From: Candidatus Magasanikiibacteriota bacterium
GTDB lineage: Bacteria > Patescibacteriota > Patescibacteriia > Magasanikbacterales > GWA2-37-8
Length of the DNA: 52,359 nucleotides
Direction: 5' to 3'
Assembly (NCBI GenBank): GCA_023246725.1
Contig: JAHFHV010000002.1
Span: forward strand, 1-52,359
Shown here: positions 1 through 51,278 of the stretch, piece by piece
How the letters are laid out: every line of letters starts with the position of its first letter
Numbering within the stretch: the first letter of the stretch is position 1
Program-made: the position numbers and the translations under genes
The notes under the pieces: generated by a model
Told to the model about the DNA's origin: nothing
Database searches by the model: none
What the model saw: the letters and a program-made list of their open reading frames with translations, nothing else

Positions 1-318
1 TGTTTGCCGCCACTCTCGGCAGCGCAGAGGACGGCAACCCCCTCTGTGCTCCCCCTTGGTAAGGGGGAGATACCAACGACCGAACAAAAACTGCGCGTCA
101 TGGTAGAACATACCTATCTTTTTGAAAAACTCCTCGGAGACAAAAAAAGCTTCCACATTATGAAGAAGCATTACAAAGCGTACGTGAATGGTTTTGACGG
201 AGCGAAAGAATTGCGGGTGGAGTTGATGGAGAGCGCTGCTGACGCATCTGAAGTTGAACAAATTATCAACAAATTTCTACTTACCAATTGTCATCCCGAA
301 TCCCCGTTCTCGGGGTGA
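1..318 (+). CDS. tRNA-dihydrouridine synthase (Dus family), C-terminal fragment; 5' end outside window
   Basis: The frame is open to the window edge. The stretch HIMKKHYKAYVNGFDGAKELRVELME...EQIINKFL resembles the C-terminal helical domain of Dus enzymes. The last ~9 codons (CHPESPFSG) and the stop lie inside repeat 290-465. Confidence 0.55.
   Translation, partial: CLPPLSAAQRTATPSVLPLGKGEIPTTEQKLRVMVEHTYLFEKLLGDKKSFHIMKKHYKAYVNGFDGAKELRVELMESAADASEVEQIINKFLLTNCHPESPFSG
49..69. repeat. GC-rich hairpin (family 2-like) inside the dus frame
   Basis: CTCCCCCTT-ggt-AAGGGGGAG is a perfect 9-bp stem, translated as ..LPLGKGE... It has the same style as the hairpins at 28606, 19213, 30605, 37387 and 40591. 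Confidence 0.4.
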
Positions 319-465
319 GGGATCTCTGTCCCAATCGTTGTCATTCCGACCGTAGTGGAGGAATCTCGCCAACAATCGCGAGATCCCTCGGCTGCGCTCG
401 GGATGACAGTTGCGACACCCCGCAACTGCGGGGCTCGTCGGCCGCGAGGCCTCGCTCGGAATGAC
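290..465. repeat. Family 1 palindromic element, composite/nested copy (arm order L-L-R-R)
   Basis: Arms in order: GTCATCCCGA..GAGGGATCTC, then GTCATTCCGA..GGAGGAATCTC, then GAGATCCCTC..TCGGGATGAC, then ..TCGCTCGGAATGAC. The arms are mutual reverse complements. Related copies are at 20859, 32435, 36059, 39075 and 51195. Confidence 0.85.
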
Positions 466-6385: not shown

Positions 6386-6527
6386 GTAAAAAAGAGGTAT
6401 TATACAAAAGTCCCAAAATTGTACCTCAAACCATTTTTTTTGGCAAGCGTTAGGTTGTGGACTATTTAAAACCACCCCGCCAATGCGGGGTGGTTTAGGG
6501 CTAATTATACTTAAGACAGCAACAAAA

Positions 6528-7502
6528 TTACAGGCTATGAGCCGCAGTAATTGTGTTTGTGCCAGTACAGGTGCCTTTCAAACTGCTGGTCGGAGAAGCT
6601 GGGACCAGCAATCTCCAGTAAGTAGACGACTGCGATGCGTTGGAGTCTTGCTGTTTATTGAGGTTCAACTGAAAGTCAGTCGCTGCCGAGGACAAAGCCG
6701 TGCCGTCAGCGTAAGCAAAACTAGACACGCCGCTGTACTTCTGTTGGCCCACCATCATAGTGCCGGTGGTGCAGTTTAAGTGCGTTCCACTATTCTGCAC
6801 GTCAACGTCAGCGTCATTACCCGTATCAGTTATCACCAGTGTCTTAATGCCTGAAGTGTCGCCAAGATTAAGATTGCCATAGGCAATTGAGCTGCCCACG
6901 TCAATCGCGGTGAGCAGGTTAACTTCAACGTTCGCGGAATTGGTGCCGGTCGTGCCATTGGGGTCACCGGCCGTGGCTTTATCGGTGGTAGTAACAAAGG
7001 CCACCCAAGTCTGCGCGCTATAGTTACCGACTCCGTCATTAGAATCAGTCGCGTCCGCGTAATACTTAACCGTAAAAGCGCAGGAATAATCGCCCGTAAT
7101 ATCCGATGCCCCGCCGCCGGAACAATTTGACAGGGTACAACCGGCATTGACATAACAATTTAAATCATTGGCCGCGCAACTAGACGCGCCGGCCACGGCG
7201 CTGCGATACAGCCGAGCCACCACACTGCCGTTCGGGTCAACTTCATCACACCCGTTCAAATCAGTGTATGAGCCAGACACCGTAACGCTAGTATCAGTAC
7301 TCTCGGAAAATGTCACTGGACTGGGCGCAATAACCACCGAATCGGTGGACGGGGCTTTGTTGAGAATTTCCGCGCTCGTGGAGGTGCTATCGGTCCGGGA
7401 ACGCAAGGAAACAAAAATCACCAAAATCAAAAGTCCGGCAATAAATAGCAACAGCCCCATTACGTAATGAAACTTAGAATTATTTTCGGTTCCTTCAATC
7501 AT
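6528..7502 (-). CDS. secreted/anchored Cys-containing beta-rich surface protein, paralog A
   Basis: It has an N-terminal TM/signal anchor (LLLFIAGLLILVIFV). It shares motifs with 7939-8841: NCY, YYAD(A/P)TD, VN.LTA, IT(D/N)TGN, NLNKQ, Y(W/F)(R/K)L.(V/A)P and G(T/S)CTG.NTITA at the C terminus. Confidence 0.75.
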   Translation of the reverse strand: MIEGTENNSKFHYVMGLLLFIAGLLILVIFVSLRSRTDSTSTSAEILNKAPSTDSVVIAPSPVTFSESTDTSVTVSGSYTDLNGCDEVDPNGSVVARLYRSAVAGASSCAANDLNCYVNAGCTLSNCSGGGASDITGDYSCAFTVKYYADATDSNDGVGNYSAQTWVAFVTTTDKATAGDPNGTTGTNSANVEVNLLTAIDVGSSIAYGNLNLGDTSGIKTLVITDTGNDADVDVQNSGTHLNCTTGTMMVGQQKYSGVSSFAYADGTALSSAATDFQLNLNKQQDSNASQSSTYWRLLVPASPTSSLKGTCTGTNTITAAHSL

Positions 7503-7548
7503 ATGAGGAATAAATTGAATTATTGATTAATTAATATAATACCGACCT

Positions 7549-7812
7549 TTACTTTTTGCCGCTAATGTTGGCTGAAGTCCCCACGTCTTTTCCGCCTGCG
7601 GGCGGTATTCCCACGGTGGCCTCTGTTTTCACCGTCGCATTATCAGGTACACCGCTCCCGCCGCCCCCTCGGATATAATTTATAATTGTTCCCCCGCTAC
7701 TGTTGCCGGTTCCCTGATTTTTCCGCAAAAGCGGCTGAAGCGCTAGGACTAATCCTAAAATTAACGCGAAAGCTAGCCACGCGGCCCCGATTGAAATAAA
7801 ATATTTATGCAT
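7549..7812 (-). CDS. small Gly-rich membrane-anchored protein, hypothetical
   Basis: An 87-aa ORF with a strong SD (AAGGAGGTG) 5 nt upstream of the ATG, an N-terminal TM (AAWLAFALILGLVLAL), and a TGCTATGAT extended -10 at the complement of 7867-7875. Confidence 0.7.
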   Translation of the reverse strand: MHKYFISIGAAWLAFALILGLVLALQPLLRKNQGTGNSSGGTIINYIRGGGGSGVPDNATVKTEATVGIPPAGGKDVGTSANISGKK

Positions 7813-7938
7813 AATTCACCTCCTTTGCCAAAATATTAAAATTTAGTCTAAACATATATTTCCTACATCATAGCATATTTTTAACAAAAAACCTACTTAA
7901 TTTAGGGTTATGGTTTTAATACCTGGGGATAACTTTTC

Positions 7939-8841
7939 TCAACCAGCGCTCACAGCTGTGATGGTATTAAGGCCGGTGCAACTGCCGCTAACGCCAAAAA
8001 CCGGCGCCACGAGCTTAAAATACATGGTGGCACCGGCGCTGGCCGCGCTGGTTTGTTTGTTTAGGTTGACAATATTCAAAGTCGGTGTGGCGGTAAGGCT
8101 AGTCATGACGGAAAAGTCCTGCCCGGGCGAAAAGGCATAATGTTGATTGGAGACCGGAATCGCGCCCCGCGCGCAAGCCATGTCCGCGCCAGATGCTTCC
8201 ACGTTCAAGGCCGTATTGCCAGTATTTGTAATGGTAAGAGCAACATCGCTGGTTGAAGTCGTTCCAAGACCAAAGGCGCCATAGCCTAAATCACCGCTTA
8301 AATTAAGGGCGGTCAGCGAGTTCACTTCGGTTGCGACCGTAACACTGCTAGTTGCGCCGCTCATATCAGTCGCCAAAATCCGCGCTTCCCACTGTTCCGC
8401 CCCCCAGGTCCCAATATCGGTTGGATCGGCATAATATTGGAGCGGAATAATACATTCGTAATCTTCCGAATTGGCTTGTTGATTGGTAATCTGGCAACCA
8501 CCCACTACGCGATAACAATTATTATTATCTTCCGGGCAGGCAAAAGTGTTGGCCAGTCCATTGCGATAAAAATCCACTTGCAACTGATCGGCATTAATAT
8601 CGCTCGCTCCATCGGCATCGCTCACGGTGCCATGCACATAAACTAGCGTCGTCGCAAGCTCGCTAAGGTTAATAGCGTCAACTGGCGCGCCATTGGGCGT
8701 GGTCACGCTCATTACGACGCTCCCCACTACTGGCTCGGCGTTCGCCCGGGCCGGCGTTGACATATAGCCTATAAAACCCGCTAACGCCAGGCTTGCCGCC
8801 ATTACAGCATACGCATAAATGAATCGATTTAACCAAACCAT
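7939..8841 (-). CDS. secreted Cys-containing beta-rich surface protein, paralog B
   Basis: It has a signal peptide (..AASLALAGFIGYMSTPARANA) and is a paralog of 6528-7502 (shared motifs listed there). Confidence 0.75.
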   Translation of the reverse strand: MVWLNRFIYAYAVMAASLALAGFIGYMSTPARANAEPVVGSVVMSVTTPNGAPVDAINLSELATTLVYVHGTVSDADGASDINADQLQVDFYRNGLANTFACPEDNNNCYRVVGGCQITNQQANSEDYECIIPLQYYADPTDIGTWGAEQWEARILATDMSGATSSVTVATEVNSLTALNLSGDLGYGAFGLGTTSTSDVALTITNTGNTALNVEASGADMACARGAIPVSNQHYAFSPGQDFSVMTSLTATPTLNIVNLNKQTSAASAGATMYFKLVAPVFGVSGSCTGLNTITAVSAG

Positions 8842-8867
8842 ACGCTACAGTTTAACAATTATCAGGG

Positions 8868-10151
8868 TCAGCTAACTTTACGAGCCGTTCGGACGGATGC
8901 TCGACCGGCTCCCCGGCCGCCGCCGCGCCGGCGGCGGAGTATCAGCCAAACCACCCCGCCCAAACCAACCAAAACCGCCGTACCACCGCCAATCGCCAGT
9001 AGCTTAGCCGTCCGGCTCAGGCCGGGCTCGGCTACCACAAAATCAATTGTTTTCAGTTCCGATTTGCTAACGCCGTATTCTAAATAGGCTTCAGCGCGAT
9101 AATGGCCAGTCTGGTTCAGACGATACGTTATAAGATATTCAGTGCTTTGACCCTTAAACACGCGTTTCGCTTCCGAGCGCAGCAAATCCAGGGTTTTTTC
9201 GCCGGATTTAATTTCCACATACAAAATTGGCTCCACCGCCACCGCCCCGCTGTTTTTTACCTGGGCTTTGAATTTAATTAGCTCGTTGGGCGCAAAGGCC
9301 AGGGCGCTACTCTCAAACAAAGAAAACTCCAAACGCTGGGCTAATGTCCCTGGCGGATGAATGCGAACATACATCTTATCCTTGCTAAAAACCACCCGCT
9401 CGCCATCATAAAACAGGGCTGTCACATTATAATCGCCTTGGGGAATCAATTCTGTTACCAGCGCCTTCAGGGACTGGCGCGCCTGCGGACCAGTATACGC
9501 CAGATCAGCTCCAGAAATAGTTTGATTTATCTCATGCGCTGGGTCAGTCACGTCGGTCAGACGCACGACAATCTTGTCCGGCCGGGCATCCACGTTGCCG
9601 GTATTCTCAAACATAAATGTCAGGAGCAGCGGGACCCCAACTTCAGTTTCTTCCACATAAGCTTGGCTAATTGACCAGGCCTTAATTTGGTTGTCGCTAA
9701 CCGAAAATTTAATTTGGGCAATAACGCCGGTCATAATCCCAACGTTCGCTCCAACCTGCTGCTCTTGGCCTCCCCCGCCGGCGGAGGCCGCCGCCGCGCC
9801 CAAAAGACGCAGGATGGCAGTATGCTGGCCGTTAGCGGCCGACCGCGGCGCCAGAACAAAGGCCACTTCAGCTGTTTTTTGCCCAACGGCCATGGTCACC
9901 GTTGCTTGGGGCAATTCAATATACTGGGCGCCTTCGCCCTCTACGGTGACGCTAAAAACTTGCGCCTCGGACGCGCCCGAACGGCTTAGTTGTATCTTGC
10001 GCTCCCAGCGTGTTCCGTTAATCACATCGGTAAGCACGGTAACGCTGGGCGATACGCCAATCGCCCCGGCCGCGCGCGGCCACAAAAATAGACTTAACAG
10101 TGCGACTATGACGCCGCCGCGAAAACAATTGCTAAAATTTCTAGTCTGCAT
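8868..10151 (-). CDS. surface protein with signal peptide and C-terminal TM anchor plus basic tail (DUF916/NEW3-like architecture)
   Basis: I trimmed the start to the ATG at 10151 (MQTRNF..ALLSLFLWPRAAGA). The mature N terminus is IGVSPSVTVL...ERKIQLSRS. The C terminus is ..LLAIGGGTAVLVGLGGVVWLILRRRRGGG... It is a paralog of 10171-11076. Confidence 0.7.
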   Translation of the reverse strand: MQTRNFSNCFRGGVIVALLSLFLWPRAAGAIGVSPSVTVLTDVINGTRWERKIQLSRSGASEAQVFSVTVEGEGAQYIELPQATVTMAVGQKTAEVAFVLAPRSAANGQHTAILRLLGAAAASAGGGGQEQQVGANVGIMTGVIAQIKFSVSDNQIKAWSISQAYVEETEVGVPLLLTFMFENTGNVDARPDKIVVRLTDVTDPAHEINQTISGADLAYTGPQARQSLKALVTELIPQGDYNVTALFYDGERVVFSKDKMYVRIHPPGTLAQRLEFSLFESSALAFAPNELIKFKAQVKNSGAVAVEPILYVEIKSGEKTLDLLRSEAKRVFKGQSTEYLITYRLNQTGHYRAEAYLEYGVSKSELKTIDFVVAEPGLSRTAKLLAIGGGTAVLVGLGGVVWLILRRRRGGGRGAGRASVRTARKVS

Positions 10152-10170
10152 AGTTAAAATAAAATAAAAA

Positions 10171-11076
10171 TTATAATTTTTTGGCACGGGTGCGGTAATG
10201 CTGGATAGCCGCCGCTGCTAAAACCAGCGCCCCGGCTCCGCCGACCGCAAAAATTAGCCTTAACTTTTTCCCGCCGCCGCGCGCGATCTTCTGCCAAAAC
10301 GGCGGCGCCGGCACAAACTCTCGGGTTAATTCTTTGGCGGCTACCACTTGGTTATGGGATATAAACTGCAGACGCACGAGGTACTGGCCGGCCGGAGCCG
10401 TAAGCGCGACTGGCAGTTTAACCGCTCGATCGTTAAACGGCGCGGTCGCGGTTTCCCGAGCCAACGGCGCCACATAATGATAAGCCACAGCGGGGGCGGT
10501 CTGATCAATAAAATCAATCCCCAGCTGATCGATGCCATCAAGGATATTGCCCTGATTATGCAAGCTAAATAAGACGTTAAACTGGCCTCCGGCTTCAGCG
10601 CCTTCCAAAAATATATTGTCAATTAAAAGCTGTCGCCTTTCTTCCGCCACCACCGTAAAGGCAAGCGACACCGCCAAGCTAAACGATAAACCAACTTCGT
10701 TCACGTCTCCAGCCGTTTTGCTGGGCTCAGCCGTTGGGCGCACCGCCACTTGGGCCTGATATTTGCCCACTACCCCGGTGGGGGGCGCGATCGTAAGCGT
10801 CAGGGGGGCGCTCCTGTGCCCAACTGGTAAAAAAACTCTCGGGGGGGCCGTTACCCAAACCGCTCCCGCCCCCTCCACCGCAATGTCATAATATTCCGCC
10901 AGCTCGGTCCGCGACCGTGAAACCGTGATCGTCCGCTCAATCTGGCTGCCGCTTTTAACCCCAATTAATGTAACCTGCCCGGGCGTTAGCCCCAAAGCCA
11001 AAGTTGGCGCCGCGCTCATAATGAAAAATAAAAAACTCCCCCCCGCGCCAAGGCTCCAAATTAAAAATTTATTCAT
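10171..11076 (-). CDS. surface protein with signal peptide and C-terminal TM anchor, paralog of 8868-10151
   Basis: It has a signal peptide (..MSAAPTLALG), the mature N terminus LTPGQVTLIGV...ERTITVSRS, and a C-terminal TM (FAVGGAGALVLAAAAI) plus the tail RTRAKKL. The ATG lies 7 nt after a TATACT -10. Confidence 0.7.
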   Translation of the reverse strand: MNKFLIWSLGAGGSFLFFIMSAAPTLALGLTPGQVTLIGVKSGSQIERTITVSRSRTELAEYYDIAVEGAGAVWVTAPPRVFLPVGHRSAPLTLTIAPPTGVVGKYQAQVAVRPTAEPSKTAGDVNEVGLSFSLAVSLAFTVVAEERRQLLIDNIFLEGAEAGGQFNVLFSLHNQGNILDGIDQLGIDFIDQTAPAVAYHYVAPLARETATAPFNDRAVKLPVALTAPAGQYLVRLQFISHNQVVAAKELTREFVPAPPFWQKIARGGGKKLRLIFAVGGAGALVLAAAAIQHYRTRAKKL

Positions 11077-11083
11077 ATAGATT

Positions 11084-11092
11084 AGTATACCA
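11084..11092 (-). promoter_or_regulatory. extended -10 promoter element (TGGTATACT); predicted leaderless start of the surface operon
   Basis: The minus strand reads TGGTATACT-aatctat-ATG (ATG at 11076). The 7-nt gap equals the usual -10 to TSS distance. Confidence 0.45.
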
Positions 11093-11247
11093 CATTTCTT
11101 TCACCGACGCGAGAAAGTTATCCGCCCCATTGTTTTCTTTTCGCCAACCTGCTACACTAATTTAACGCCCGCTTAATTTTTTTTAGATTGTAAAAAAATT
11201 GAAAAAGATGACAACTATTAATGTGTTTTTCTACAGTCTCAAGCTAT

Positions 11248-12246
11248 ATGGCTAATCATCCCAGCCGGTTTAATCGCCAGCGCACGCTAATTCTCATTAT
11301 CTGCGGCACTTTAATTAGCCTTAACCTGGCGCTCGCGGCCGTGGTATGGCGCCTGCGCCCCTGGAATTTTTTGCGAGTGGCTAATATTCCGCTCGCGGAA
11401 CAGCGCCAAAGTGAAAAAAACAGTCTGTTGGTGGTAACCTTACCTCCAGCCAACAGCCGCGCCGAACTTGGCTTAATGATTTTCCGGCCCATGGACGGCC
11501 GCGCGGAAACTTTGACCGGAACCTGGCAATTTGTCTGGCTCCAGCCGAGTATTCTCGCGCTCTTTGGATCTTTCCCCAATCAGTCCGGGGTACAGCGCCT
11601 CTACTTAGTAACCGCTAAGGGCAGCGTGGCCCTTGATATTTCGCGGCTCCCTGGCGCCATTGGCAACATCCGGCCGAATAAAAACGGATCTTTAATGATT
11701 GTGGATGGACGGAGAAATCAACCCCGCCCGGGCAAAAAATTCTACTCCTGCGTTCTGACTGATTTAAAAAAAGGGCTGTGTCGGGAAGCCAAGGAACTTA
11801 TCCCGGCCAAGAATTATCATTCCGACGCCAGCTACGCGCTTGAGTGGAACCCCGGCGCTGACTCCGAACTGATTATTACTGAATCCTCCGCCTCGCCCCA
11901 ACGGTTTGTCTATCACTTGTCGGACAGGCTGGCTACGCCCACCACTTCGCTGGCAAAAACTGCGACCACGACCGGCCCCAACTGGGCTCTGCCACAAACG
12001 CGCTATGCGATTAAACGTTACGCCTGGGTGACTGTTATTCACGATCGGCGTTTTAACCAGAAACATTATTTTATTTTACCGCCAACGGCTCGGCTCATCT
12101 GGGTAGGGCAAAAAACTCTGCTCGTAATTAATTGGCCCGACAGCTATCTGTTAAATATCTTCGCCCGGGAAAAAAGCCGCCTGCCGCCATGGCCGCCCAG
12201 TGCCAGGGCCGCGGCTACGTACTATGGGACATTGCCGCTTGACTAG
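11248..12246 (+). CDS. hypothetical membrane-anchored protein
   Basis: I trimmed the start to MANHPSRF.. (ORF-track start 11221). It has a single N-terminal TM (LILIICGTLISLNLALAAVVW) and no recognisable domain. Confidence 0.55.
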   Translation: MANHPSRFNRQRTLILIICGTLISLNLALAAVVWRLRPWNFLRVANIPLAEQRQSEKNSLLVVTLPPANSRAELGLMIFRPMDGRAETLTGTWQFVWLQPSILALFGSFPNQSGVQRLYLVTAKGSVALDISRLPGAIGNIRPNKNGSLMIVDGRRNQPRPGKKFYSCVLTDLKKGLCREAKELIPAKNYHSDASYALEWNPGADSELIITESSASPQRFVYHLSDRLATPTTSLAKTATTTGPNWALPQTRYAIKRYAWVTVIHDRRFNQKHYFILPPTARLIWVGQKTLLVINWPDSYLLNIFAREKSRLPPWPPSARAAATYYGTLPLD

Positions 12247-12607
12247 GCGGCGCGGCCAGCCGCTTAGCGCAGGCTACCACCGCTTCAAGCGGTGTGTTCG
12301 CTTTAATAAGATAAACGTGGGCGCCCAAGCTTTTGGCGTGAGCCATATCTTCCGGCTGGCCTAAATTAGACAGCACCGCCACCGGGGTACGCCGATCGCT
12401 CCGGCGGAATTGGTGGAGAAACGCGAACCCATCCATTTCCGGCATCAAAAGATCGAGCAGCACCACATCAAAAGCTTGGCCTGCCAAAATTCGCAGAGCT
12501 TCCTTGCCGTTATTCGCGCCGACCACTGTAAATCCCGCCTGGCGCAATTTGGCGGCCAACGCCTTAGCTAACGAATCTTCATCTTCCACTAATAAAATTT
12601 TAGGCAT
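12215..12607 (-). CDS. receiver-only response regulator (CheY-like)
   Basis: The product reads MPKILLVEDEDS...DVVLLDLLMPEMDG...YLIKA. The start is the ATG at 12607 (ORF-track 12652). There is no output domain. Confidence 0.8.
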   Translation of the reverse strand: MPKILLVEDEDSLAKALAAKLRQAGFTVVGANNGKEALRILAGQAFDVVLLDLLMPEMDGFAFLHQFRRSDRRTPVAVLSNLGQPEDMAHAKSLGAHVYLIKANTPLEAVVACAKRLAAPPSQAAMSHST

Positions 12608-12630
12608 AAATTTAAAAAAATTATTATAAA

Positions 12631-13215
12631 CTAGCTTCCCTGCCGCCACCACATCGCCTGGCCCACAATATACTCGCGGCTAACCGGCCCAAAATCGCGC
12701 GAATCGGTGCTGTGTTCGCGGTTATCGCCCAGCACAAAATATTGCCCGGGGAAAAGACGGAACTTCCGCGGTCCTGCTTGATTAACTATTTTGGTATAAA
12801 CAACAGTTGGTAGATAAGGCTCAATGATCTGGCGCTCCTGCCCCATATCCGGCGCTTGCACAAAAACTTTGCCGCGCTTAATTATAATGGTTTCGCCGGG
12901 AAGGCCCACCACTCTTTTGAGCATCACTTTGTCGCTCCCCGGCACCACCACCTGAACAATGTCGTGCCGCGCCGGCCGCCTGTAAAGATATCCCAGCCGG
13001 TTTACCACAAACAGCTGGTTATCAATAAAAGTCGGCTCCATTGATTGCCCGTCCACCTGGCCAACGTCCACAACCAAAAAACGCGTCGCGAGAATGAAAA
13101 AAATAAACACGCCTAACATGGTCGCCACCCGCCACAAATAACGCTCAAACAACAAGCGTAGGTGAGCCATCAGGTTCTGGAAAAATGTCAATGAAGTGAT
13201 GTCGTGGGCTGGCAC
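12631..13215 (-). CDS. lepB: signal peptidase I
   Basis: S26A motifs are present: VDGQSMEPT, MLKRVVGLPGE and GDNREHSTDSRDFGPV. It has an N-terminal TM. The start is uncertain (GTG at 13215 or ATG at 13170). Confidence 0.85.
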   Translation of the reverse strand: MPAHDITSLTFFQNLMAHLRLLFERYLWRVATMLGVFIFFILATRFLVVDVGQVDGQSMEPTFIDNQLFVVNRLGYLYRRPARHDIVQVVVPGSDKVMLKRVVGLPGETIIIKRGKVFVQAPDMGQERQIIEPYLPTVVYTKIVNQAGPRKFRLFPGQYFVLGDNREHSTDSRDFGPVSREYIVGQAMWWRQGS

Positions 13216-13257
13216 AAAATTAAAAAATAAGGTATGCTATCCGTGTAAATTTTTAGT

Positions 13258-13605
13258 ATGCGCATTAATTTTTTCTTCGGTCTGGCGGCGCTTGGTAATT
13301 ATATCAAAATTTATCTGGATAGTCTCCTCCATAATCAGACGCTCATCGGCTTTGCCGGCGGCGTGGTTATGAGTTGCCTGATTACCGGATTTGTTTTAAC
13401 CAAAGACCCGCGCCACCTGCCGCTCATGCTTCGTTATTCTGGCGCGGAAAGCTTCCAGCGCATCCACGCTCGTAATCCTCAAGGCAGCTATACCAAACCC
13501 TATATTGAATTTCTCAATCTCTACACGCAGGTCCGCCTGCTCGCGCTTGTCGCCATCATTGCTTTTTTTGTGATGATCGGCACGGTGGTGGTTTTAACCA
13601 AATAG
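13258..13605 (+). CDS. hypothetical two-TM membrane protein
   Basis: A 115-aa ORF with two hydrophobic segments and no recognisable motifs. Confidence 0.45.
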   Translation: MRINFFFGLAALGNYIKIYLDSLLHNQTLIGFAGGVVMSCLITGFVLTKDPRHLPLMLRYSGAESFQRIHARNPQGSYTKPYIEFLNLYTQVRLLALVAIIAFFVMIGTVVVLTK

Positions 13606-13612
13606 ACTTTGC

Positions 13613-14560
13613 TTAACGAAAATAGCCCACGATTGTGTTGGCGAGAGAGCGGATTGCTGATACGGCCGCGGCCGCTACCTGCTCGGAAGTGGCGCTAATA
13701 ACTGCCGCCGCCCCTTGAGTAAATACCGCCACGCTGGCCACCGCGCGCCCGGCGCTACGGGCCACCAAGACTACTGTTTGCTGGCTAACGCGCGCCACCT
13801 GCCCATAAGTCGCTGTTACCGCGGCCAGGGCAGTTTGGGCCGCCACCACCACCGCCTCCCCGCCGTTTGCCGCAATGGTTTGAAATGCCGCCACTACCTG
13901 TTGCCCGGCGGCGCCGGCTGTTTCCAGCGCTTGGCTAACCGCTCCGCCAATATTGGCGGTGGCGGCCGCCACTGCCGCTCCGAGTGACCCTGATTCTACT
14001 GTTAATTCACTATTGGTTTGGCTAGAAGCTAGGGGCACAGCCTCGCTCTCGCTGTCTCCGGTCTGGTCTTCTAGAGAATGTTCATCGGCCGCCTCGTCCT
14101 TAATTGCCAAATCGCTGTTCGGCTGGCCAACTTCTTTTTCAAAATTATGTTCCGCCGCGCCATTGTTTTCCACGTCCGGCGTGGCCGCTTGTTCTGAAGT
14201 CGCCGCTTGTTCTGATTCAGAGATCACCGCAGGAACAAACTCGCCGCTCGCCGCGTCATGAGCCTGGCTCGCCTCAACCGAATCAGCTGTGTCAGGGCTG
14301 GTTTCAGAAGGCGGCGCTGTTGTCTGCCAATCATTTCCGCCCCCGCCGCCAGTACTGCCGCCCCGAGCGTAGTCGAGGGGCGGGCAATCTTCCCGGCACT
14401 CCGCCGGCTCCTCAAAGGACTCGCAGCGGCCATTGTGGTTACAAGCAATAATGGTGACCGAAGTTTTAATGTATGCCAAACCGCGAGCCGGCCACATAAG
14501 GCTGATCGCAACAATCACGCTGAGCGCGCGGCGAAACAAAAAAAATAAACGTCTGGGCAT
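13613..14560 (-). CDS. secreted protein: Cys-rich N-terminal module, acidic low-complexity linker, Ala-rich C-terminal region
   Basis: It has a signal peptide (..ISLMWPARGLA), then CNHNGRCESFEEPAECREDCPP, a D/E/S/T-rich region with the short duplication SEQAATSEQAAT, and an Ala/Val/Gln-rich tail. Confidence 0.6.
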   Translation of the reverse strand: MPRRLFFLFRRALSVIVAISLMWPARGLAYIKTSVTIIACNHNGRCESFEEPAECREDCPPLDYARGGSTGGGGGNDWQTTAPPSETSPDTADSVEASQAHDAASGEFVPAVISESEQAATSEQAATPDVENNGAAEHNFEKEVGQPNSDLAIKDEAADEHSLEDQTGDSESEAVPLASSQTNSELTVESGSLGAAVAAATANIGGAVSQALETAGAAGQQVVAAFQTIAANGGEAVVVAAQTALAAVTATYGQVARVSQQTVVLVARSAGRAVASVAVFTQGAAAVISATSEQVAAAAVSAIRSLANTIVGYFR

Positions 14561-14584
14561 GGTAAATTTACCAATACAAATAAG

Positions 14585-15916
14585 CTAGACTTTAAAGATG
14601 GTTGCCCACCAACGGCGCCACCACGGGGCGCCGCTTGGCGAACGACGCGCGGCTGACTGACCGGACGGAATGTCAACAGACCCGGCGGCAAAAACATAAT
14701 TATCCGCGTGATCAAAAACCTGGGCAAAAATGTTATGCGGTCCGTAAATATTAGCCGGAAGCCTAACGGACAGCTGGCCGGAGCTGACCACTGCCGGCAG
14801 GGAAACATAATCGCCATTATCCACTTTGACTGTCACATGATCAACCCCGGAAATCGCGTCTGATGCCGCCAGCGTTAAGACTGGCCAAGAGCCGTTCCTG
14901 CCTGGATTAGTCGCGGCTACGATCGTAGACGCGCGCGGGGCCTCGGTATCAATATGCAAAGCAAAATGAGTGCTGTCGCTCCAGCCGCGGCCAGTCTTAA
15001 ATTGACTGTGGAAATACCAAACGCCATTGCTCAAATTCTTAAATCGTTTAAAGCGGATTGGGGGAATAGACACCGTAGTTGGTTCTGAATCCGGATTTTG
15101 ATTCAAAGACCAGCGGACCGCTGTCACGTTCGGAGGCAAGGGCCAGGCAATATCCACATCCGGCGCGTTGTACCAGGCGCTCTGGTCAGGATGAGTGAAC
15201 GAACTCACGCCATCAGGCTCTTCGTTCGGGTTGACAAATTCAGCGATCCCCAAACGAGGTGAGGCGCTCGAGGCGCGTCCAGCCTGGCTCAAGGCCCCTG
15301 GATTGCCTAATTGGAGAGCGGTAACGCCAGGCGCGCTCAAGGGCAACTTGGCGGCGGGCGCAATTGTAAGCGCGGAGTTATCTGTAATTACCGGAAAAAA
15401 CCCGGCCAAACTCCCGCCTTCCACTCCCCCGCCTGGCACTGGCACCGGTGTTGCAATGGAACGGACGCTCGCCGGACGCCAATCAGTCGCCACCGCGCAA
15501 TGCGCGCAGTCAAATGCCAGCGTCCCAATTATGTCTCCGGCCGCATTGCCATGAAAAATTCCAGCGTTGTCAATGGTAACACCGGCAAAATTAATCCAAC
15601 CCAGAGCCGCTCCCCAGGCGTAGCCAGACAGAACCCCGGCGCCATTGTTGATAACCCCGCCAGTGGCGGGACTCAAATTTAGCCAGCCATAATTGGCGCT
15701 CCAGGCAAAACCAGTCAGGGCGCTGTCGGTGATATGAATATCGCCCTGGCTGACGCCAAAATTAATCCAGCCGCTCTGGTTGCTCCAAGCGTATTGTCCG
15801 CTACTGTCAATGGTGCCATTGGTTGGCGAAGCAACCGCAACCACAGGCGTCAAAAGCGCCGCGCCTGCCAGACACCAAATAAATTTATTGATCGCGCGGA
15901 ACATTGTTTGGTGCAT
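14585..15916 (-). CDS. secreted protein with GW(I/L)NF repeats and C-terminal Ig-like region
   Basis: It has a signal peptide (..LLTPVVAVASP) and the repeats YAWSNQSGWINFG, GFAWSANYGWLNLS and GYAWGAALGWINFAG. The start overlaps the upstream gene by about 30 nt. Confidence 0.7.
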   Translation of the reverse strand: MHQTMFRAINKFIWCLAGAALLTPVVAVASPTNGTIDSSGQYAWSNQSGWINFGVSQGDIHITDSALTGFAWSANYGWLNLSPATGGVINNGAGVLSGYAWGAALGWINFAGVTIDNAGIFHGNAAGDIIGTLAFDCAHCAVATDWRPASVRSIATPVPVPGGGVEGGSLAGFFPVITDNSALTIAPAAKLPLSAPGVTALQLGNPGALSQAGRASSASPRLGIAEFVNPNEEPDGVSSFTHPDQSAWYNAPDVDIAWPLPPNVTAVRWSLNQNPDSEPTTVSIPPIRFKRFKNLSNGVWYFHSQFKTGRGWSDSTHFALHIDTEAPRASTIVAATNPGRNGSWPVLTLAASDAISGVDHVTVKVDNGDYVSLPAVVSSGQLSVRLPANIYGPHNIFAQVFDHADNYVFAAGSVDIPSGQSAARRSPSGAPWWRRWWATIFKV

Positions 15917-18332
15917 CTAATTGAATAGGTTCGACTAGCGGGAGAGCGCCAGCGGGCGCGGGCCCGACCGGCCCAATTTCAACTGGCGGCGGCGCCAGCG
16001 CGTCGGTTTCGGCGCTCGTAGTCACCACCACCGCTTCAGTCTCGGTAATTGGCGATTCAACAATCTGTGGCCATAGCGCGCCTTCCGTGCCAGGCGCGGG
16101 CAAACTTAAGGGTATGTCGCAAGTCCCTGGCTGTTTCTGCCAATCGCCATGCACAATGCGCAGACAGTAAGCGTCGCCGGTCGCGGCGTCTTTTATTTCC
16201 AGATCATTAGTTTTCACTCGTTCAAACACGCCCACCAACGCGGTAATTTTTTGGACAAAAATTTCTTTCACAATTTTAAAGCCTTGGTTGATTTTATCCG
16301 TCAAATACTGAAGAGCGCCCGCCATTTTGTTAGCCAAAACATCGCCGAGCAAACCAGTCGTTGACGCGCTGATATAATCTTCCGTGGCTGTGGCACTCGC
16401 AATCCCTAAATTCTCCAGCCATTCATTCGCCTCAATTTGGTTGCCGGTAAAGTGGCTGTTTTTCACAAAAACTAAGGCTGAACCAACGTCCTCGCCAGCG
16501 TAGCCCGTAAGGGCTTGGCCAATAATCGGACCGGGCTTGGTCGCTTTCATGGCCACCCCCGGAATATCCGAACTGGTTAGAAAATCACCTGCCAAAATAG
16601 GGCCATTCGCCGCCGATACTCTAACCGGCACGCGCCCGGCCAAAGCGACCGGCAAGGCGTTTACGCCCTCTTTAGAAACACTGCCCACTAACAGCGCCGG
16701 TTTGGTGGCAATAACTCCAATCACCGAGCGGCCATAGGCGTGATCGGATTTTTTAACGCCAACGGCAAGGGCCTCGTCGGGCATTACTACATCGCCTGCT
16801 TGGAGTGAAGGATCGTTGGTCGCATAGAGTTCCGCCACATCCGCTCCCGTATCAATTACTAGCAAATCAAGCGATGACAGACGTACATTATGGCTTTGCG
16901 TAACAGCGCTGGCGCAAAAAGCGTACGTTTGCACAGCCGCTCCCGGATCAACATCCGTACCGCTCAATTGTATCGTCCCAACCAATGTGCCGTTAGCAAC
17001 AGTTACCAGAACTTTTGTTTCTCCGATAACTGTTCCCGTGCAGTTGGTCTTTCGAATCGCCAAAATTGCGCTGCCGTCAGTATTGCTGCCGCTGACAAGC
17101 AAGGTTTGGGCATTAATATAAACATCGCCTTGCGCCGTAGCTGGCGTGATGGTGAGCGTTAAGAGCGTGCTAGTCGCGGCCGTGCTTAAGGCTGTATTAG
17201 TATCATTGCCGGAATCAGTATGGGCTCGTTGCGAATCAGACCCGCGGATGCAGACCCCGTTTTGGGCAAGGCACCCGCCGGTAACATTAATGCCACCGGC
17301 GAAGGTGGAGGTATTAGCAGTGGACGTGGCCGTAATGTAATTAACCGTTGGCGAGGTAGACGCGGTCAGAGCGTTACCGCTTCCGGAGGAGGACAGCCAC
17401 CCTTGGCCAAATGAGCTGGCGCCAGTTCCGCCGCTATCCACGGTAAGAGCCGCGGCCAGCGTGAGAGCGCCGGCGCTGGAAAATGATGAGGTGGCAGTGG
17501 CGCCAAAATACGCCTTATTAAAAACCGATAATTGCGACGAAGAGGCAGTGGTGAGCGACACGAAGGCTGGCAACGAAAGCGTGAGAGCGCCGGTAGCGGC
17601 CGAAGCGGTAATTTGGTTGGCCGTCCCAGCCAACGCAGTAACCCCGGTGTTGGTAAACACGCCAGTTAGAGAATCGTAGGCAATACCCGCCCCAGCCGAA
17701 AGCGAGGATGACGAAATTTTGTTATTAAATAGGGCCCAATCTACTGCCGAGATAAACCCGCTGGCGCTGGATCCAGCCTGCGCCACTTGAATAGTAGCGC
17801 CGCCCCCCAAAACAGCATTACTACCGCCTGTAATCGTAAGAATTGCGGAACCAGTTTCGATTAGATTCCCGCGGGTTGTCGTGGCCAAAGCGCCGCCGCC
17901 ATTTCCGAGCAAGACGGTGCCGGATGCCAGATTTGACCACCCGGTGCCGCCATTAGCAATGCCCAAAACGCCGGTAACATCGGACGCTAAATTGATTAGA
18001 GCCGCGGACACAGCACCGGAAACAGCTTTGAGCAATCCAGATAAAGCCCCAAGACTAAAATTAGTGGCCGCCAAATTGGTTGACGTAACATTGGTACTAG
18101 TGAAATTGGTGGTGGCCAGGCTTAGGGAAGTGGTGGCCACGGTGCAGTTGGGGTCGGTTGGGGAACAAGCCGGATCAAGGGTTTCTCCCGGGTTATAAAT
18201 AATAGCGCGCGCTAAATTCCCTACGGGGGAAATAGCAATAAACAGCAGTAATAAAAAAACTGCCGTCGTTTGTACGATTTTTCTTGTGGCTTGTCCTTTT
18301 TTCATAGGCGCCTCGGTGGCTCCTTTTAACAT
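15885..18332 (-). CDS. large fibre-like secreted protein (tail-fibre-like Gly/Ala/Thr repeats, conserved C-terminal domain)
   Basis: An 815-aa ORF with an N-terminal anchor (AVFLLLLFIAI), motifs such as VTGVLGIANGGTGWSNL, and a C-terminal block ..AELYATNDPSLQAGDVVMPDE...SVIGVIATKPALLVG..ALAGRVPVRVSAANGPILAGDFLTSS... An alternative start is M10 at 18305. Confidence 0.7.
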   Translation of the reverse strand: MLKGATEAPMKKGQATRKIVQTTAVFLLLLFIAISPVGNLARAIIYNPGETLDPACSPTDPNCTVATTSLSLATTNFTSTNVTSTNLAATNFSLGALSGLLKAVSGAVSAALINLASDVTGVLGIANGGTGWSNLASGTVLLGNGGGALATTTRGNLIETGSAILTITGGSNAVLGGGATIQVAQAGSSASGFISAVDWALFNNKISSSSLSAGAGIAYDSLTGVFTNTGVTALAGTANQITASAATGALTLSLPAFVSLTTASSSQLSVFNKAYFGATATSSFSSAGALTLAAALTVDSGGTGASSFGQGWLSSSGSGNALTASTSPTVNYITATSTANTSTFAGGINVTGGCLAQNGVCIRGSDSQRAHTDSGNDTNTALSTAATSTLLTLTITPATAQGDVYINAQTLLVSGSNTDGSAILAIRKTNCTGTVIGETKVLVTVANGTLVGTIQLSGTDVDPGAAVQTYAFCASAVTQSHNVRLSSLDLLVIDTGADVAELYATNDPSLQAGDVVMPDEALAVGVKKSDHAYGRSVIGVIATKPALLVGSVSKEGVNALPVALAGRVPVRVSAANGPILAGDFLTSSDIPGVAMKATKPGPIIGQALTGYAGEDVGSALVFVKNSHFTGNQIEANEWLENLGIASATATEDYISASTTGLLGDVLANKMAGALQYLTDKINQGFKIVKEIFVQKITALVGVFERVKTNDLEIKDAATGDAYCLRIVHGDWQKQPGTCDIPLSLPAPGTEGALWPQIVESPITETEAVVVTTSAETDALAPPPVEIGPVGPAPAGALPLVEPIQLDAPNNVPRDQ

Positions 18333-18399
18333 CCCCCTAAACTAACTTAGTTAACCCTAATTAATAGTATACCACACTTCGCCCTTGCTTCATATTATC

Positions 18400-18430
18400 A
18401 AAAAAAGACCCCGGAAAGGAGTCTTTTTTT
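18400..18430. terminator. bidirectional Rho-independent terminator after secA
   Basis: AAAAAA-AGACCCC-ggaaa-GGAGTCT-TTTTTT; the stem has one mismatch. It starts 2 nt downstream of the secA stop codon (18432-18434). Confidence 0.65.
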
Positions 18431-18431: not shown

Positions 18432-21400
18432 TTATCTGCCATGGCAGTGTTTGAACTTCTTGGAACGTCCGTCCGCGTGAGTGGCGCCGCAATAACAAGG
18501 GTCATTGCGACCAATATCTTCGCCGGTTGGCGTTTTTGGTTTAGAGCTGGAATAAACAATTTTCGCGCCTCCGTCCGGATCCGCCGCTCCGCTCTGGGCT
18601 AAGCCAAATGACCCGCCGATATTGCTATCGCTCGCACCTTGCAGAATTAAATTGCGCTGTTGCATCACGCTTGGCGCCAAATCTATTCCCAGGCTCACTT
18701 TATAGATAGAGTACACCACCTCTTTTTGAATCAAACTTAAAAGTTCATTAAACATCCGGTAAGTTTCTTTTTTATACTCCACCAGCGGGTCCCGCTGCCC
18801 GTAGCCGCGCAGGCCAATGCCAGTGCGGAGGTAATCAATCGCCACCAAATGCTCCACCCACAAATTATCAATGGAGCGGAGCAGAATTTGTTTTTCAATT
18901 TCTAGCATCATCTCGGTGTGGGGCACTTTTTTTACCAGCAGCTCATCATATTTTTCCTGCGCGAGACTCGCGAGATACTCAATAATGGTTGTGCGCGCTT
19001 CGACGTCTTTGAGTTTGGCTTCGCCATTCTTGCCAAATGATAGGAGCGTATTTTTTTCCGCTTCGGATAGTGGAAAGATGGTAGTCACCGTTTCAGCGAC
19101 TTCCTTCATGTCCCAGTCGTGAGCGTCTTCGGCATTGGTATGGAATGATACGACCTGCTCAATTTCTTCGTTAATCATCTCAAACACCATGGCGCGGAGC
19201 GAGACAAGCGAGCCCTCACCCTGCCCTCTCCATTGCGATGGAGAGGGTTCACGCCCCCCCTCCACCACAGTGGAGGGGGTGGGGGGAGGATTTACCGATG
19301 GTGACATCACGGCAAACCCCGCCTTCTCTCTCGCAAACGCCTCCCCGCCTACGCGCAACGCTTCGCGTTCGCTTCGGTGGGCAAGTAAAATATTCCGCCG
19401 TTTTTCATAAATCACCTGACGATGGCGATTGATCACGTCGTCATATTCCAGCAAATGTTTACGGGTGTCAAAGTGAAATCCTTCCACTTTCTTTTGGGCG
19501 GATTCAATCAGCCGTGTAATGGTCCGCTGTTCAATCGGCATGTCATCAGGGACCTTGAGTGTGTTCATAACGCTTTTAATGCGCTCGCCGGCAAAAATCC
19601 GCATTAAATCATCATCCGTGGACAAATAAAACTGCGTTTCTCCCTGGTCGCCCTGGCGCGCCGCGCGGCCGCGGAGCTGATTATCAATCCGGCGCGATTC
19701 ATGCCGCTCGGTACCGAGGACGAAAAGCCCCCCAGCCTCCCGAGCTTTCCGAGCCTCCCCAGCATCCGGTGGATTTCCCCCTAAAATAATATCCACGCCG
19801 CGGCCCGCCATGTTGGTGGCCAAGGTGACCGCGCCCAGCCGGCCCGCTTGCGCGATAATCTCGCCTTCGCGTTCGTGGTTTTTAGCGTTTAAAATCTCGT
19901 GCTTAATTCCCTCTTGTTCCAAATACAAACTTAACCGCTCGTTTTTTTCTACGCTAATCGTGCCGATTAAAACCGGCTGGCCTTTCTCTTGGAGCGCGCG
20001 CACTTCTGTGGCAATAGCTTTGTTTTTGGCGTCCTCGGTTTTGTAAATTCGGTCCGGCCGGTCAAACCGCTGGTTGTGTTTGTGGGTGGGAATTACCACC
20101 ACTTCTAATTTATAAATTTTGCCAAACTCTTCGGCTTCGGTTACGGCCGTACCGGTCATGCCCGCGAGCTTGCGGTACATCCTAAAATAATTTTGAAAAG
20201 TAATGGTAGCCATGGTTTGGCTCTCGCGCTGAATGGGCACGTTTTCTTTGGCCTCAATGGCCTGATGCAAACCTTCCGAATAACGCCTCCCCGGCATTTT
20301 GCGACCGGTAAATTCGTCAACGATGATAACTTCGCCCTGTTCAATCACGTAATCTCGGTCGCGCTTAAACAGCGCCTTGGCGCGCAAGGCCTGCTCCACG
20401 TGGTGCACCATTGCCATGCCGCCTTCGGCGTAAATATTCGCCACCCCAAGGAACCCTTCCATTTTTTTAATCCCAACATCAGTAAGCGTGGCCGCGCGCA
20501 TTTTTTCATCAATATTATAATCTTCATTTTCCAGCAAGCGTTCCACCAGCTCCGCGTATTTGTAATACATCTCGGTGGCTTTTTCGGCCGGCGCGGAAAT
20601 AATTAACGGCGTCCGAGCCTCGTCAATCAAAATTGAGTCAACTTCATCCACAATGGCGTAATTGAGTCCGCGCTGACTCATGTCCTTTAAATCCCCCACC
20701 ATGTTATCGCGCAAATAATCAAAACCAAATTCATTATTCGTGCCATAGACGATATCACACTGGTACGCGTCCTGACGGCCGCATTTTTCCAAATGGTCGT
20801 ACTCAACTTTAAACACCGCCGCTTTTTCTTCGTCGTCTTTTGCTGTATTTTCGTTTTTGTCATCCCGAGCGAGGCTCGCGTCGACGATGGATCTCTGTCC
20901 GCTGTCATTCCGACCGATCGTCTCAGGGAGCGGAGGAATCTCGCCAATTGACAAGCGAGATCCCTCGGCTGCGCTCGGGATGACAAGTGATTGAGACGGA
21001 GATTCTTCCGGAGCCTGCACTGAGTGTAGCGAACGTGTCGTCGGAATGATAGATTGTTGTGCCTGATATTTATACGACACCAGCAAGTTCTGAATAATCC
21101 CCACACTCAACCCAAGGTAGTCATAAATCTGCCCCATCCATACCGCGTCGCGCTTGGCCAAATAATCATTCACGGTTACCACGTGCACCCCTTTGCCAGT
21201 GAGGGCGTTTAAATACGCCGGCAAGGTGGCCACCAGCGTCTTGCCCTCACCAGTCCTCATTTCCGAAATCGTGCCACGGTGCAGGGCCACGCCGCCAATC
21301 AGCTGGACATCAAAATGGCGCATGCCGGTTACGCGTTTGGAAGCTTCGCGCACCACGGCAAAGGCTTCGGGAAGAATATCATCAAGCGTTTCGCCTGTCT

Positions 21401-21788: not shown

Positions 21789-22151
21789 CTATAAAATCTT
21801 TAATCCGTGAACCTTTTTAAATATTTTATCACTCGTTATTAAACGTCCGCCGTTTAATAGCGCAGTAGCGGCAATAACGGCATCCGGTGTTTTTAAATGA
21901 CAGTGACGGCGCACTTCAGCGGCTTTCTGGGCCACTTTTGAATCTACCGGCAAAATAAAAACCTCATTGAACCATAGAGTAAACCGCACAATCTCTTCCG
22001 GTGAAATATTGGGAAAACTTAATAGCTCAAGTTCGGTTATAGTTGAAATAACAAACTGTTCCCCATTTTGACGCTCAATTTCCACAAACTTACGGAGATT
22101 TTCATCGCCGTTAAAATAATAAATAACCGTGTTTGTGTCTAGGGTAATCAT
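21789..22151 (-). CDS. vapC: PIN-domain ribonuclease toxin VapC
   Basis: The product reads MITLDTNTVIYY...TELELL...PDAVIAATA..ITSD, giving the acidic PIN residues. The ATG at 22151 overlaps the upstream stop in an ATGA overlap. Confidence 0.8.
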   Translation of the reverse strand: MITLDTNTVIYYFNGDENLRKFVEIERQNGEQFVISTITELELLSFPNISPEEIVRFTLWFNEVFILPVDSKVAQKAAEVRRHCHLKTPDAVIAATALLNGGRLITSDKIFKKVHGLKIL

Positions 22152-22339
22152 ACCCACTCGCGCCGCATCTTTTTTTGGAAACGCAGTCCATCAATCTTTT
22201 TGTTTCGCCACATCCCTTGCACCGCCGCCCACCCATCCATTATCTGAAGACTGGCCAAGAGTTTAGACCTCACAGCTAAAACTTTCTTGGCTTCGGCAGG
22301 TGTTTGTTTTTTAATTGTTTTTGTTAAAACTAAATTCAT
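22148..22339 (-). CDS. putative VapB-type antitoxin (small protein coupled to vapC)
   Basis: A 63-aa ORF translationally coupled to vapC. I chose the ATG at 22339 over the TTG at 22360. I do not recognise a fold family. Confidence 0.5.
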   Translation of the reverse strand: MNLVLTKTIKKQTPAEAKKVLAVRSKLLASLQIMDGWAAVQGMWRNKKIDGLRFQKKMRREWV

Positions 22340-27164: not shown

Positions 27165-27260
27165 ATGATTTGAGGAAATGAAATAAGGAATAAATAAGTT
27201 AGCTCTAGTATAGCACATCCTGAACAAGCTGGACAGAAGTAGGCGCAAGCCTGTTGATAA

Positions 27261-30587: not shown

Positions 30588-30604
30588 AATAGTCGTGTCG
30601 AGCG

Positions 30605-30693
30605 AGACCTCTCCTCCTGTCCTCCCCTCTGCAGAGGGGAGGCAGAATCGACCCCTCTCCTTGGCAAAGGAGAGGGCAGGGAGAGGTCTGACA
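30605..30693. repeat. Family 2 GC-rich element (outer stem plus two hairpins), pilB-pilC intergenic
   Basis: The outer stem is GACCTCTCC...GGAGAGGTC. The inner hairpins are CCTCCCCTC-tgca-GAGGGGAGG and CCCTCTCC-ttggcaaa-GGAGAGGG. Its reverse complement aligns with 37387-37477. Confidence 0.85.
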
Positions 30694-30714
30694 GGCGTTT
30701 CATAGTACAATATT

Positions 30715-32434: not shown

Positions 32435-32539
32435 GTCATTCCGAATCCCCATTCGCATGGGGTGAGGAATCTCTGTCTCAATCAACCAACGGACAGAGAT
32501 CCCTCGTCGTCCCGCAGTGCGGGACTCGCTCGGGATGAC
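32435..32539. repeat. Family 1 palindromic element, single full unit
   Basis: The unit reads GTCATTCCGA-atccccattcgcatggggt-GAGGAATCTC...GAGATCCCTC-gtcgtcccgcagtgcgggac-TCGCTCGGGATGAC. It lies in the intergenic space between the response regulator and pilB. Confidence 0.85.
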
Positions 32540-32567
32540 AACGGTGAACATTGCCTCGCAATGACGC

Positions 32568-36058: not shown

Positions 36059-36086
36059 GGGATTCCTCGGCTTCGCTCGGAATGAC
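36059..36086. repeat. Family 1 element, solo right arm
   Basis: GGGATTCCTC-ggcttcgc-TCGGAATGAC abuts the helicase stop codon at 36089-36091. Confidence 0.6.
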
Positions 36087-37360: not shown

Positions 37361-37386
37361 AGTATGGTGAATTACGAAACTAACGC

Positions 37387-38321: not shown

Positions 38322-38428
38322 AATCTTTAAGGAAGCATACCATAAAGGTTTAAAAAGATCAACTTTAGACCAGTTACCAAAGATAAAAATCGATTTTCTT
38401 CCACAGGTGTCATCCACAGCTGCCGATC

Positions 38429-51194: not shown

Positions 51195-51278
51195 GTCATT
51201 CCGACCGAGGCTCGCGCCGAGCGGAGGAATCTGGCCGAGATTTGGTGAGCGAGATCTCTCGGCTGCGCTCGGAATGAC
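51195..51278. repeat. Family 1 palindromic element, single full unit
   Basis: The unit reads GTCATTCCGA-ccgaggctcgcgccgagc-GGAGGAATCT...GAGATCTCTC-ggctgcgc-TCGGAATGAC. It starts 6 nt upstream of the frr ATG. Confidence 0.85.

Follow-up and report, generated by a model that had tools for sequence, protein, structure and literature searches.

A stretch of 52,359 nucleotides from a genome of the Candidatus Magasanikbacteria group (referred to below as the window; the best match to its SecA is 80% identical) carries a palindromic repeat at six scattered loci, and the question is what kind of element this is and which enzyme, if any, it depends on. The initial annotation described the repeat as a MITE/REP-like element of six copies and stated that no transposase is present in the window. 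We confirmed the latter statement and found all six loci where they had been placed, except that the second copy ends at 21050 and not at 21049. The copies and their parts are as follows.

290..326, plus strand: outer arm of copy 1, type A, composed of TGTCATCCCGA-hairpin core-GAGGGATCTC
340..407: inner unit of copy 1, type B, with an arm on the plus strand (340-367) and an arm on the minus strand (380-407)
434..465, minus strand: degenerate outer partner arm of copy 1, with the tag and the core GCGAGGCCTCGCGGCCGACGAG retained and the tail gone
20859..20895, plus strand: outer arm of copy 2, inside secA, common to relatives P0002 and P0003
20904..20984: inner unit of copy 2, 81 nt, with arms at 20904-20942 (plus) and 20957-20984 (minus)
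20999..21050, minus strand: outer partner arm of copy 2, decaying, its tag now ATCAT and its stem broken
32435..32539: copy 3, a dimer of type A whose loop is unoccupied, with arms at 32435-32473 (plus) and 32496-32539 (minus)
32549..32565, minus strand: degenerate mini-arm of a sibling subtype (GTCATTGCGAGGCAATG), adjoining copy 3
36059..36086, minus strand: copy 4, a solo arm 2 nt from the helicase stop codon
39075..39152: copy 5, a type B dimer with arms at 39075-39110 (plus) and 39125-39152 (minus)
51195..51278: copy 6, a type B dimer with arms at 51195-51233 (plus) and 51251-51278 (minus)

Dimers make up five of the six loci, and five of the six lie at gene ends. The stop codon of dus (316-318; ORF 4..318) falls within the outer arm of copy 1, which encodes the final dus codons and the stop, and the inner unit of that copy is nested in the loop of the outer unit. 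The core of its degenerate partner arm recurs in an intact arm of a relative (L243, 1776-1812). Copy 3 is flanked by the T2SS-E ATPase gene and a response-regulator gene, the solo arm of copy 4 is located upstream of a hairpin resembling an intrinsic terminator, the left arm of copy 5 has a compensated stem (ATTTC/GAAAT), and copy 6 separates the stop of the BNR-repeat gene from frr. The copy in secA is in frame and contributes 192 nt, or 64 codons (residues about 170-233). The placement at gene borders holds for dus and the helicase gene, but the 6-nt distance to frr probably does not. The frr ORF as listed starts at 51189, and 118 of 120 homologues among the matches listed are 182-184 aa long and align from the fourth codon; because the homologues have 182 aa, translation probably starts with the ATG at 51180, which leaves 15 nt to the unit.

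The repeat is far more frequent than chance would allow. The head motif GTCATYCCGA, with at most one mismatch, occurs 21 times in the window (3.8 expected), a number reached in none of 100 shuffles, and the tail motif occurs 22 times (7.6 expected). A motif-free search, which required only GTC, the stem AT-NNN ... N'N'N'-AT with its three stem bases free, and a C, yielded 11 intact arms against 0.69 expected and a maximum of four in 200 Markov shuffles; T precedes GTC in all 11. One near-match to the head motif at 18501-18510 (GTCATTGCGA) was rejected as a copy, as it is a coding coincidence that specifies the conserved GRND of the SecA C-terminal zinc-binding tail, which is also found in the relative L129.

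It had been suggested that a whole unit folds into one long hairpin. Whole units do fold in this way with RNA parameters (z of -2.5 to -7.9) as well as DNA parameters (-21 to -30 kcal/mol, z of -4.9 to -5.9), and a single arm is only marginally stable when nearest-neighbour DNA energies are used (-2.7 kcal/mol, z about -0.4). As a conserved structure, however, the long hairpin could not be upheld, since what is conserved is each arm's own hairpin. The layout of an arm is YY, GTC, AT-NNN, GA, core, GA, N'N'N'-AT and CTC, in that order. In a set of 304 arms, taken from the window and other fetched loci and collected with the sixth head base and the third tail base free in the pattern, the head and tail of the same arm were TCC and GGA in 156 cases, CCC and GGG in 103, and crossed in 2 (259:2). 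The left head and the right tail of one unit were weakly coupled (TA 42, CG 23, CA 20, TG 17). An unbiased scan of IMG/VR with GTCATNNNGAGCGNAGCGANNNATCTC, in which three stem positions were free, returned 116 arms, and in 108 of these the triplets were perfectly complementary, with seven stem types represented and about two such arms expected by chance. A partner arm was found within 70 nt in 32 of the 116, while the other 84 were solo. It is the single arm, and not the left-right hairpin as a whole, that forms the conserved module.

The base before GTC is T in 98 and C in 14 of the 116 scanned arms, and the flank logo reads YY-GTC...GAC-RR, with a pyrimidine at position -1 in 96%; beyond this YY/RR flank, neither conservation nor target-site duplication was seen in 101 units. 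The GA..GA pair is retained in 257-260 of 279 arms. The core is often GCGNAGC, with all four bases represented at N, a sequence known as an extraordinarily stable DNA mini-hairpin (PMC13037366), and many arms have instead a long core, of up to 49 nt, that forms a perfect hairpin. The stem of a short arm consists of 5 bp, GA/GA, 2 bp and a 3-nt loop, which amounts to nine stem positions with the GA pairs included. Nine of the 11 window arms have CTC as the tail, and a C lies directly 3' of the stem (...AT-C) in every window arm by direct reading; because the search patterns required this C, its presence outside the window is not independent evidence. Units are 64-116 nt long with inverted ends and TG...CA termini. 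The earlier view of a dispersed, REP-like, non-autonomous palindromic repeat under structural constraint is supported.

A literature search by exact arm sequence returned nothing relevant, and the family was identified through the text and supplement of Di Nocera (2013) together with the dRS3 literature. To judge from tag and stem, the arms belong to the CGTC/TGTC-tagged REP superfamily, which includes the Neisseria dRS3/NTS and the Rickettsia RPE-6 repeats, and they have the architecture of the Ssn-related motifs (SRM) described in 2025. In the superfamily, the CGTC tag is "changed to TGTC" in many repeats, the stem starts with AT and a 3-nt tail follows; inverted dimers and in-frame intragenic units occur, and there is no dedicated transposase (Di Nocera 2013, PMC3733652). 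In that classification, CGTC-1 is equivalent to dRS3 and RPE-6, and CGTC-4 to RPE-4 (PMC3733652). The window arms have in common with CGTC-1 to CGTC-4 the CGTC/TGTC tag, AT at stem positions 1-2 and the unpaired 3-nt tail, as well as the prevalence of inverted dimers, the intragenic in-frame units and the lack of a linked transposase. They differ in that the tail is CTC, whereas the consensus of the CGTC REPs is CCA, and in that the stem/loop layout or the long cores of the window arms fit none of the four families. The published stems are of 8-9 bp with loops of 4-5 nt. The earlier study covered five phyla, as compared with at least 14 in our scan.

For the NTS, the enzyme is known. The NTS, the 28-nt sequence CGTCATTCCCGCGMAVGCGGGAATCYRG, is bound and cut, as single-stranded DNA and on one strand only, by SsnA, a GIY-YIG nuclease of 94 aa (Chenal et al. 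2025, PMC11893778). NTS/SRM and the window arms share the Y-GTC tag, the AT at the stem start and the C directly after the stem, and both are strand-specific in orientation and tolerate variation in the loop. Hundreds of dispersed NTS/SRM copies are found per genome, and dispersal is also a property of the present arms. The inner stem is different, being GA/GA plus GCGNAGC or a long hairpin in the window but CCGC-GMAV-GCGG in NTS/SRM, and the window arms reside, unlike NTS/SRM, in Patescibacteria, in a genome in which no ssn gene has yet been seen. The published SRM pattern, HGTCWYN(0-2)YYVSBRHN(0-5)WNVSBRGN(0-2)RNCYNB, had no match in the window; the canonical arm fails it, and an NTS control matches. 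The window subtype is, therefore, outside the published definition.

Two further groups of repeats deserve comparison. RPE-6 and RPE-4 resemble the window repeats in being inserted in frame at permissive sites of essential protein-coding genes, and the encoded peptides are of one style: VIPAKAGI and DSRFRGND in Rickettsia, VIPSAAEGS and IGRNDS in the window. The supplement for CGTC-1 lists the peptides VIPAKAGI, SFPRKRES and DSRFRGND (PMC3733652). The RPEs have another stem sequence and another host and, unlike them, the present repeats have hit one SecA site repeatedly across lineages, and the relatives make it possible to date a nested insertion. The REP/BIME and REPIN-RAYT systems of Enterobacteria and Pseudomonas are also short imperfect palindromes with an unpaired tag that occur as inverted dimers and solo copies without target-site duplication, and a single-copy partner gene is bracketed by the repeats in REPIN-RAYT as in the present family. 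However, the REPIN tag is GT[AG]G rather than GTCA, and the partner is a Y1 HUH transposase rather than a GIY-YIG nuclease.

The initial annotation had proposed a RAYT or an IS200/IS605-type TnpA as the mobilising enzyme. Neither is associated with the arms in 2 Mb of element-bearing DNA; the linked gene instead encodes a small GIY-YIG nuclease of the Ssn type. At one locus (L227), a GIY-YIG gene of 94-101 aa (Pfam E-value 1.4e-10) is preceded by an arm at a distance of about 65 nt and followed by a dimer after 28 nt. A metagenome scan with the L227 GIY-YIG protein gave 80 loci, and in 68 of these an arm lies within 250 nt of the gene. Of the 59 loci in which the sequence to the left and right was long enough, 41 have arms both upstream and downstream of the gene, just as the NTS/SRM flank a gene of about 94 aa. 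Arm density is 5.17 per kb near the GIY-YIG gene and 0.25 per kb elsewhere, a 21-fold difference. Most of the sampled arms flanking these genes have ATTCT or ATCCT stems, and 11 have ATTCC or ATCCC; the exact ATTCC/ATCCC-GA (ATYCC) subtype of the window flanks a GIY-YIG gene at L299, L309, L311 and L319. The products of the arm-flanked genes appear to be Ssn-like members of the cd10448 clade, as indicated by the Pfam GIY-YIG hit, the size, and the presence of Tyr17 and Glu64 at the positions mutated in SsnA. These observations establish that the repeat family is coupled to Ssn-like genes. The finding agrees with the report that ssn homologues are flanked by such motifs across phyla (Chenal et al., PMC11893778). 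Neither the window nor about 100 kb of loci from relatives contains an ssn gene, and hence a cognate enzyme in the present genome is an assumption.

Comparison with relatives whose proteins are 79-86% identical shows three copy gains specific to the window lineage: the unit upstream of frr, the copy at the 3' end of dus, and the 81-nt inner unit in secA. In three relatives, in which the site is empty, 3-42 nt separate the BNR-repeat gene from frr; the corresponding distance in the window, between the BNR stop and the probable frr start (51180), is 111 nt. In L129, dus and DUF8128 are convergent and overlap, whereas in the window they are separated by the 176-nt nested copy, which now encodes the C-terminus and stop codon of dus. 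Empty orthologous sites, which the initial annotation had named as a check, thus exist at frr (three relatives) and at dus (L129), although the insertion junctions at both are defined with less than nucleotide precision because the flanking intergenic DNA has diverged. In P0002 and P0003, secA has a single unit, the loop of which is CAAYCA-ACCGA-CGGACAG. In the window, the 81-nt unit has been inserted into the loop of this older unit with a net gain of 27 codons, and it is absent from both relatives. The nested L-L-R-R arm order that had been noted is real in both copies, the secA relatives having the outer unit alone, and the two nested copies (dus and secA) entered at the same loop position in opposite orientations.

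Other copies are older, as the outer secA unit and the helicase solo arm are common to relatives. The stem of the latter is ATTCC/GGAAT in the window and ATTCT/AGAAT in L133, which is a compensatory change; in L131, a different repeat replaces this arm. Synteny around the helicase gene, on which a comparison of the sites of copies 3 and 5 would depend, is poorly conserved. The insertion in secA follows LLVSYKY in nucleotide-binding domain 1, where the Thermotoga SecA has an extra segment of its own, and the site is a permissive loop of SecA. Among 16 aligned SecA sequences of the Magasanikbacteria group, 10 are empty at this site and the others have one unit, a nested pair or other subtypes. 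Such varied occupancy points to repeated independent hits at one site.

We think it likely that the individual arm is the module, a strand-specific DNA hairpin that belongs to the CGTC/TGTC-tagged REP superfamily and is coupled to Ssn, and that the cognate Ssn is encoded in the present genome outside the window. In the case of SsnA, cutting depends on the three bases 5' of the palindrome (GTC) and binding on the C that follows it, and the cut is made a few nucleotides upstream of the hairpin on the tagged strand (PMC11893778). By analogy, Ssn would bind the hairpin of the tagged strand when it is single-stranded and cut a few bases upstream; single-stranded TGTCATTCCGAGCGAAGCGAGGAATCTC is the predicted substrate of Ssn from the arm-flanked loci. 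Because the usual unit consists of two inverted arms, there would be one cuttable arm on each DNA strand. The repeats might in this way act on the fate of single-stranded DNA in uptake, recombination or replication, and their spread might depend on the ssn-flanked element. To our knowledge, GIY-YIG nucleases do not rejoin DNA, and Ssn alone is therefore insufficient to explain how copies are inserted. A bolder version, which we regard as doubtful, is that the hairpin units are actively inserting in this Patescibacteria genome of about 1 Mb by an undescribed route that uses no transposase, depends on or is started by Ssn, leaves no duplication and prefers the loops of hairpins already present. 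The ssn-flanked element and its arms would then be a new class of mobile element, which would have reached at least 14 phyla by horizontal movement linked to DNA uptake. Components of a type IV pilus/T2SS are encoded in the window.

Among the alternatives to an Ssn-coupled module, the one to be taken most seriously, though we consider it unlikely, is that the arms are orphans or relics in a reduced genome without a cognate Ssn, which persist or spread by recombination, gene conversion or the uptake of foreign DNA. The lack of an ssn gene in the window and in the relatives' loci is in keeping with this idea, as is the decay of the arms at 434-465 and 20999-21050. In addition, the fraction of genomes with more than 200 SRMs that encode Ssn is 81% and not 100% (PMC11893778), and extinction has been suggested by Di Nocera as a possible fate of the CGTC families (PMC3733652). 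Relics, however, would hardly account for three lineage-specific gains in 52 kb with tags and stems intact or for the compensatory stem change in the orthologous solo arm, and the inspected share is only about 15% of a genome of roughly 1 Mb. We consider it improbable that the repeat is instead a host cis-element that acts as RNA (a terminator, 3'-end stabiliser, processing site or translational-control hairpin) and has been selected at gene borders. The location of five of six loci at gene ends, the strong RNA folding of the units and the position of copy 6 just upstream of the frr start are what such an element would show, and REPs are reported mostly downstream of ORFs (PMC3733652). This reading does not fit well with an in-frame copy within secA, with the nesting of copies, with a primary sequence kept across at least 14 phyla, or with the separate terminator that follows the helicase solo arm. 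Moreover, SsnA binds no RNA (PMC11893778), and no Rfam family scored above noise: at gathering thresholds the window gave four tRNAs only, and the permissive mode gave sub-threshold miRNA-hairpin noise. A secondary use as RNA may nevertheless occur at single loci.

That the arms form a canonical REPIN, mobilised by a RAYT or an IS200/IS605-type TnpA encoded elsewhere in the genome, is very unlikely, even though the unpaired tag, the hairpin, the inverted dimers and the absence of target-site duplication resemble REP/REPIN (PMC6006769) and 2 Mb of element-bearing loci yielded four Y1 genes. These four were the only hits when 12,361 ORFs were searched by jackhmmer with the E. coli RayT, and all have other flanking repeats, namely a GGGG-type terminal inverted repeat (L005) or GTGG-type REPs (L159 and L168); none is flanked by TGTC arms. 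The arms begin with GTCA and lack the 5' GT[AG]G that defines REPINs (PMC6006769), and an association with Y1 genes was found for no CGTC family (PMC3733652). The MITE label of the initial annotation, by which the repeat would be a deletion derivative of an IS with a DDE transposase and the arms its terminal inverted repeats, is the least plausible explanation and one that we regard as having almost no chance of being correct. The TG...CA termini and the units of 64-116 nt with inverted ends gave reason to consider it. Target-site duplications, however, were found in 0 of 101 units, there is no parent IS (about 2 Mb contained no full-length element with such ends), many arms are solo (84 of 116), and the internal hairpin of the arm co-varies, which terminal inverted repeats have no need to do. 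When ORFs from 120 element-bearing loci were clustered, no recurrent neighbour gene emerged, the clusters being ABC ATPases, response regulators and similar genes only. A search for an autonomous element between distant inverted arms produced a sole candidate (L049), which was rejected, as inspection of the sequence of its 496-aa protein revealed no transposase features.

The Ssn-coupled family is widespread. A 26-position pattern of the full unit, run against GTDB contigs with one genome per species, gave at least 120 matches in at least 14 phyla, where about 1.5 would be expected by chance according to our own estimate. Cultured isolates are among the matches (Flavobacterium, Spirosoma, Sphingomonas and Reyranella), and PLSDB plasmids and GenBank phages contain almost no arms. 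In other phyla, the units that fall in long ORFs lie mostly upstream of the real domain, and hence are likely read-through artefacts. The repeat family and its partner enzyme were already known, and the novelty lies in the host group, in a subtype that the published pattern does not cover, and in the dated insertions. Since the subtype is missed by the SRM pattern and is yet coupled to Ssn, the family is probably wider than reported. The three gains that can be dated, including the one in the loop of an older copy, bear on how CGTC/NTS-type repeats multiply without a transposase. The independent in-frame insertions in one loop of the essential SecA ATPase in different lineages constitute a natural experiment in the tolerance of a protein to selfish DNA. 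Finally, with recently active copies in a genome of about 1 Mb, the genes that might carry out the insertion step are few.

Several other repeats were encountered in the window and in related loci. A second dispersed palindromic family (CCCTCTCC-loop-GGAGAGGG) occurs in the window at 38-75, 19208-19249, 30604-30720 and 37357-37477, and one copy lies in frame at a second variable site of secA, where it encodes the peptide EPSPSQWRGQGEG, which is also found in P0006. GGGG-type repeats similar to this family bracket the Y1/RAYT gene of L005 and replace the helicase solo arm in L131. The loci L159:1045-1851 and L168:1200-2940 are canonical REPtrons, in which GTGG-tagged REPs (GTGGCGCAGGCTTCAGCCTG...) enclose Y1 genes; a pair of these REPs in L168 has a TGTC unit (2805-2894) nested inside it, which is another insertion into an existing palindrome. 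Larger repeats of 190-213 nt that contain the unit were seen in a Kiritimatiellae MAG and a Francisellaceae MAG (L021:4569-4764, L021:6390-6585 and L091:7176-7366; L040:5128-5321 and L040:7052-7264), which suggests composite (mosaic) elements built round arms.

Apart from repeats, the window contains a block of about 12 kb (about 6500-18400) between secD and secA with a G+C content of 53-56%, as compared with 43-49% around it; the secD-secA gap is only about 1 kb in L129. The block encodes mostly proteins without a Pfam match, plus a signal peptidase and a response regulator, and no integrase or transposase. Genes of the toxin-antitoxin type (HepT/MNT, HEPN and PIN) are located at 34645-35342, 37917-38417 and 21789-22157, and a deaminase and HepT/MNT block of about 2.1 kb separates the helicase and Bro-N genes, which are adjacent in L131. 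Within the pilin/T2SS cluster, the adjacent ORFs 26197-26664 and 26673-27248 share DNA segments that are 73% identical (repeat families D1 and D4) and look like tandem paralogues.
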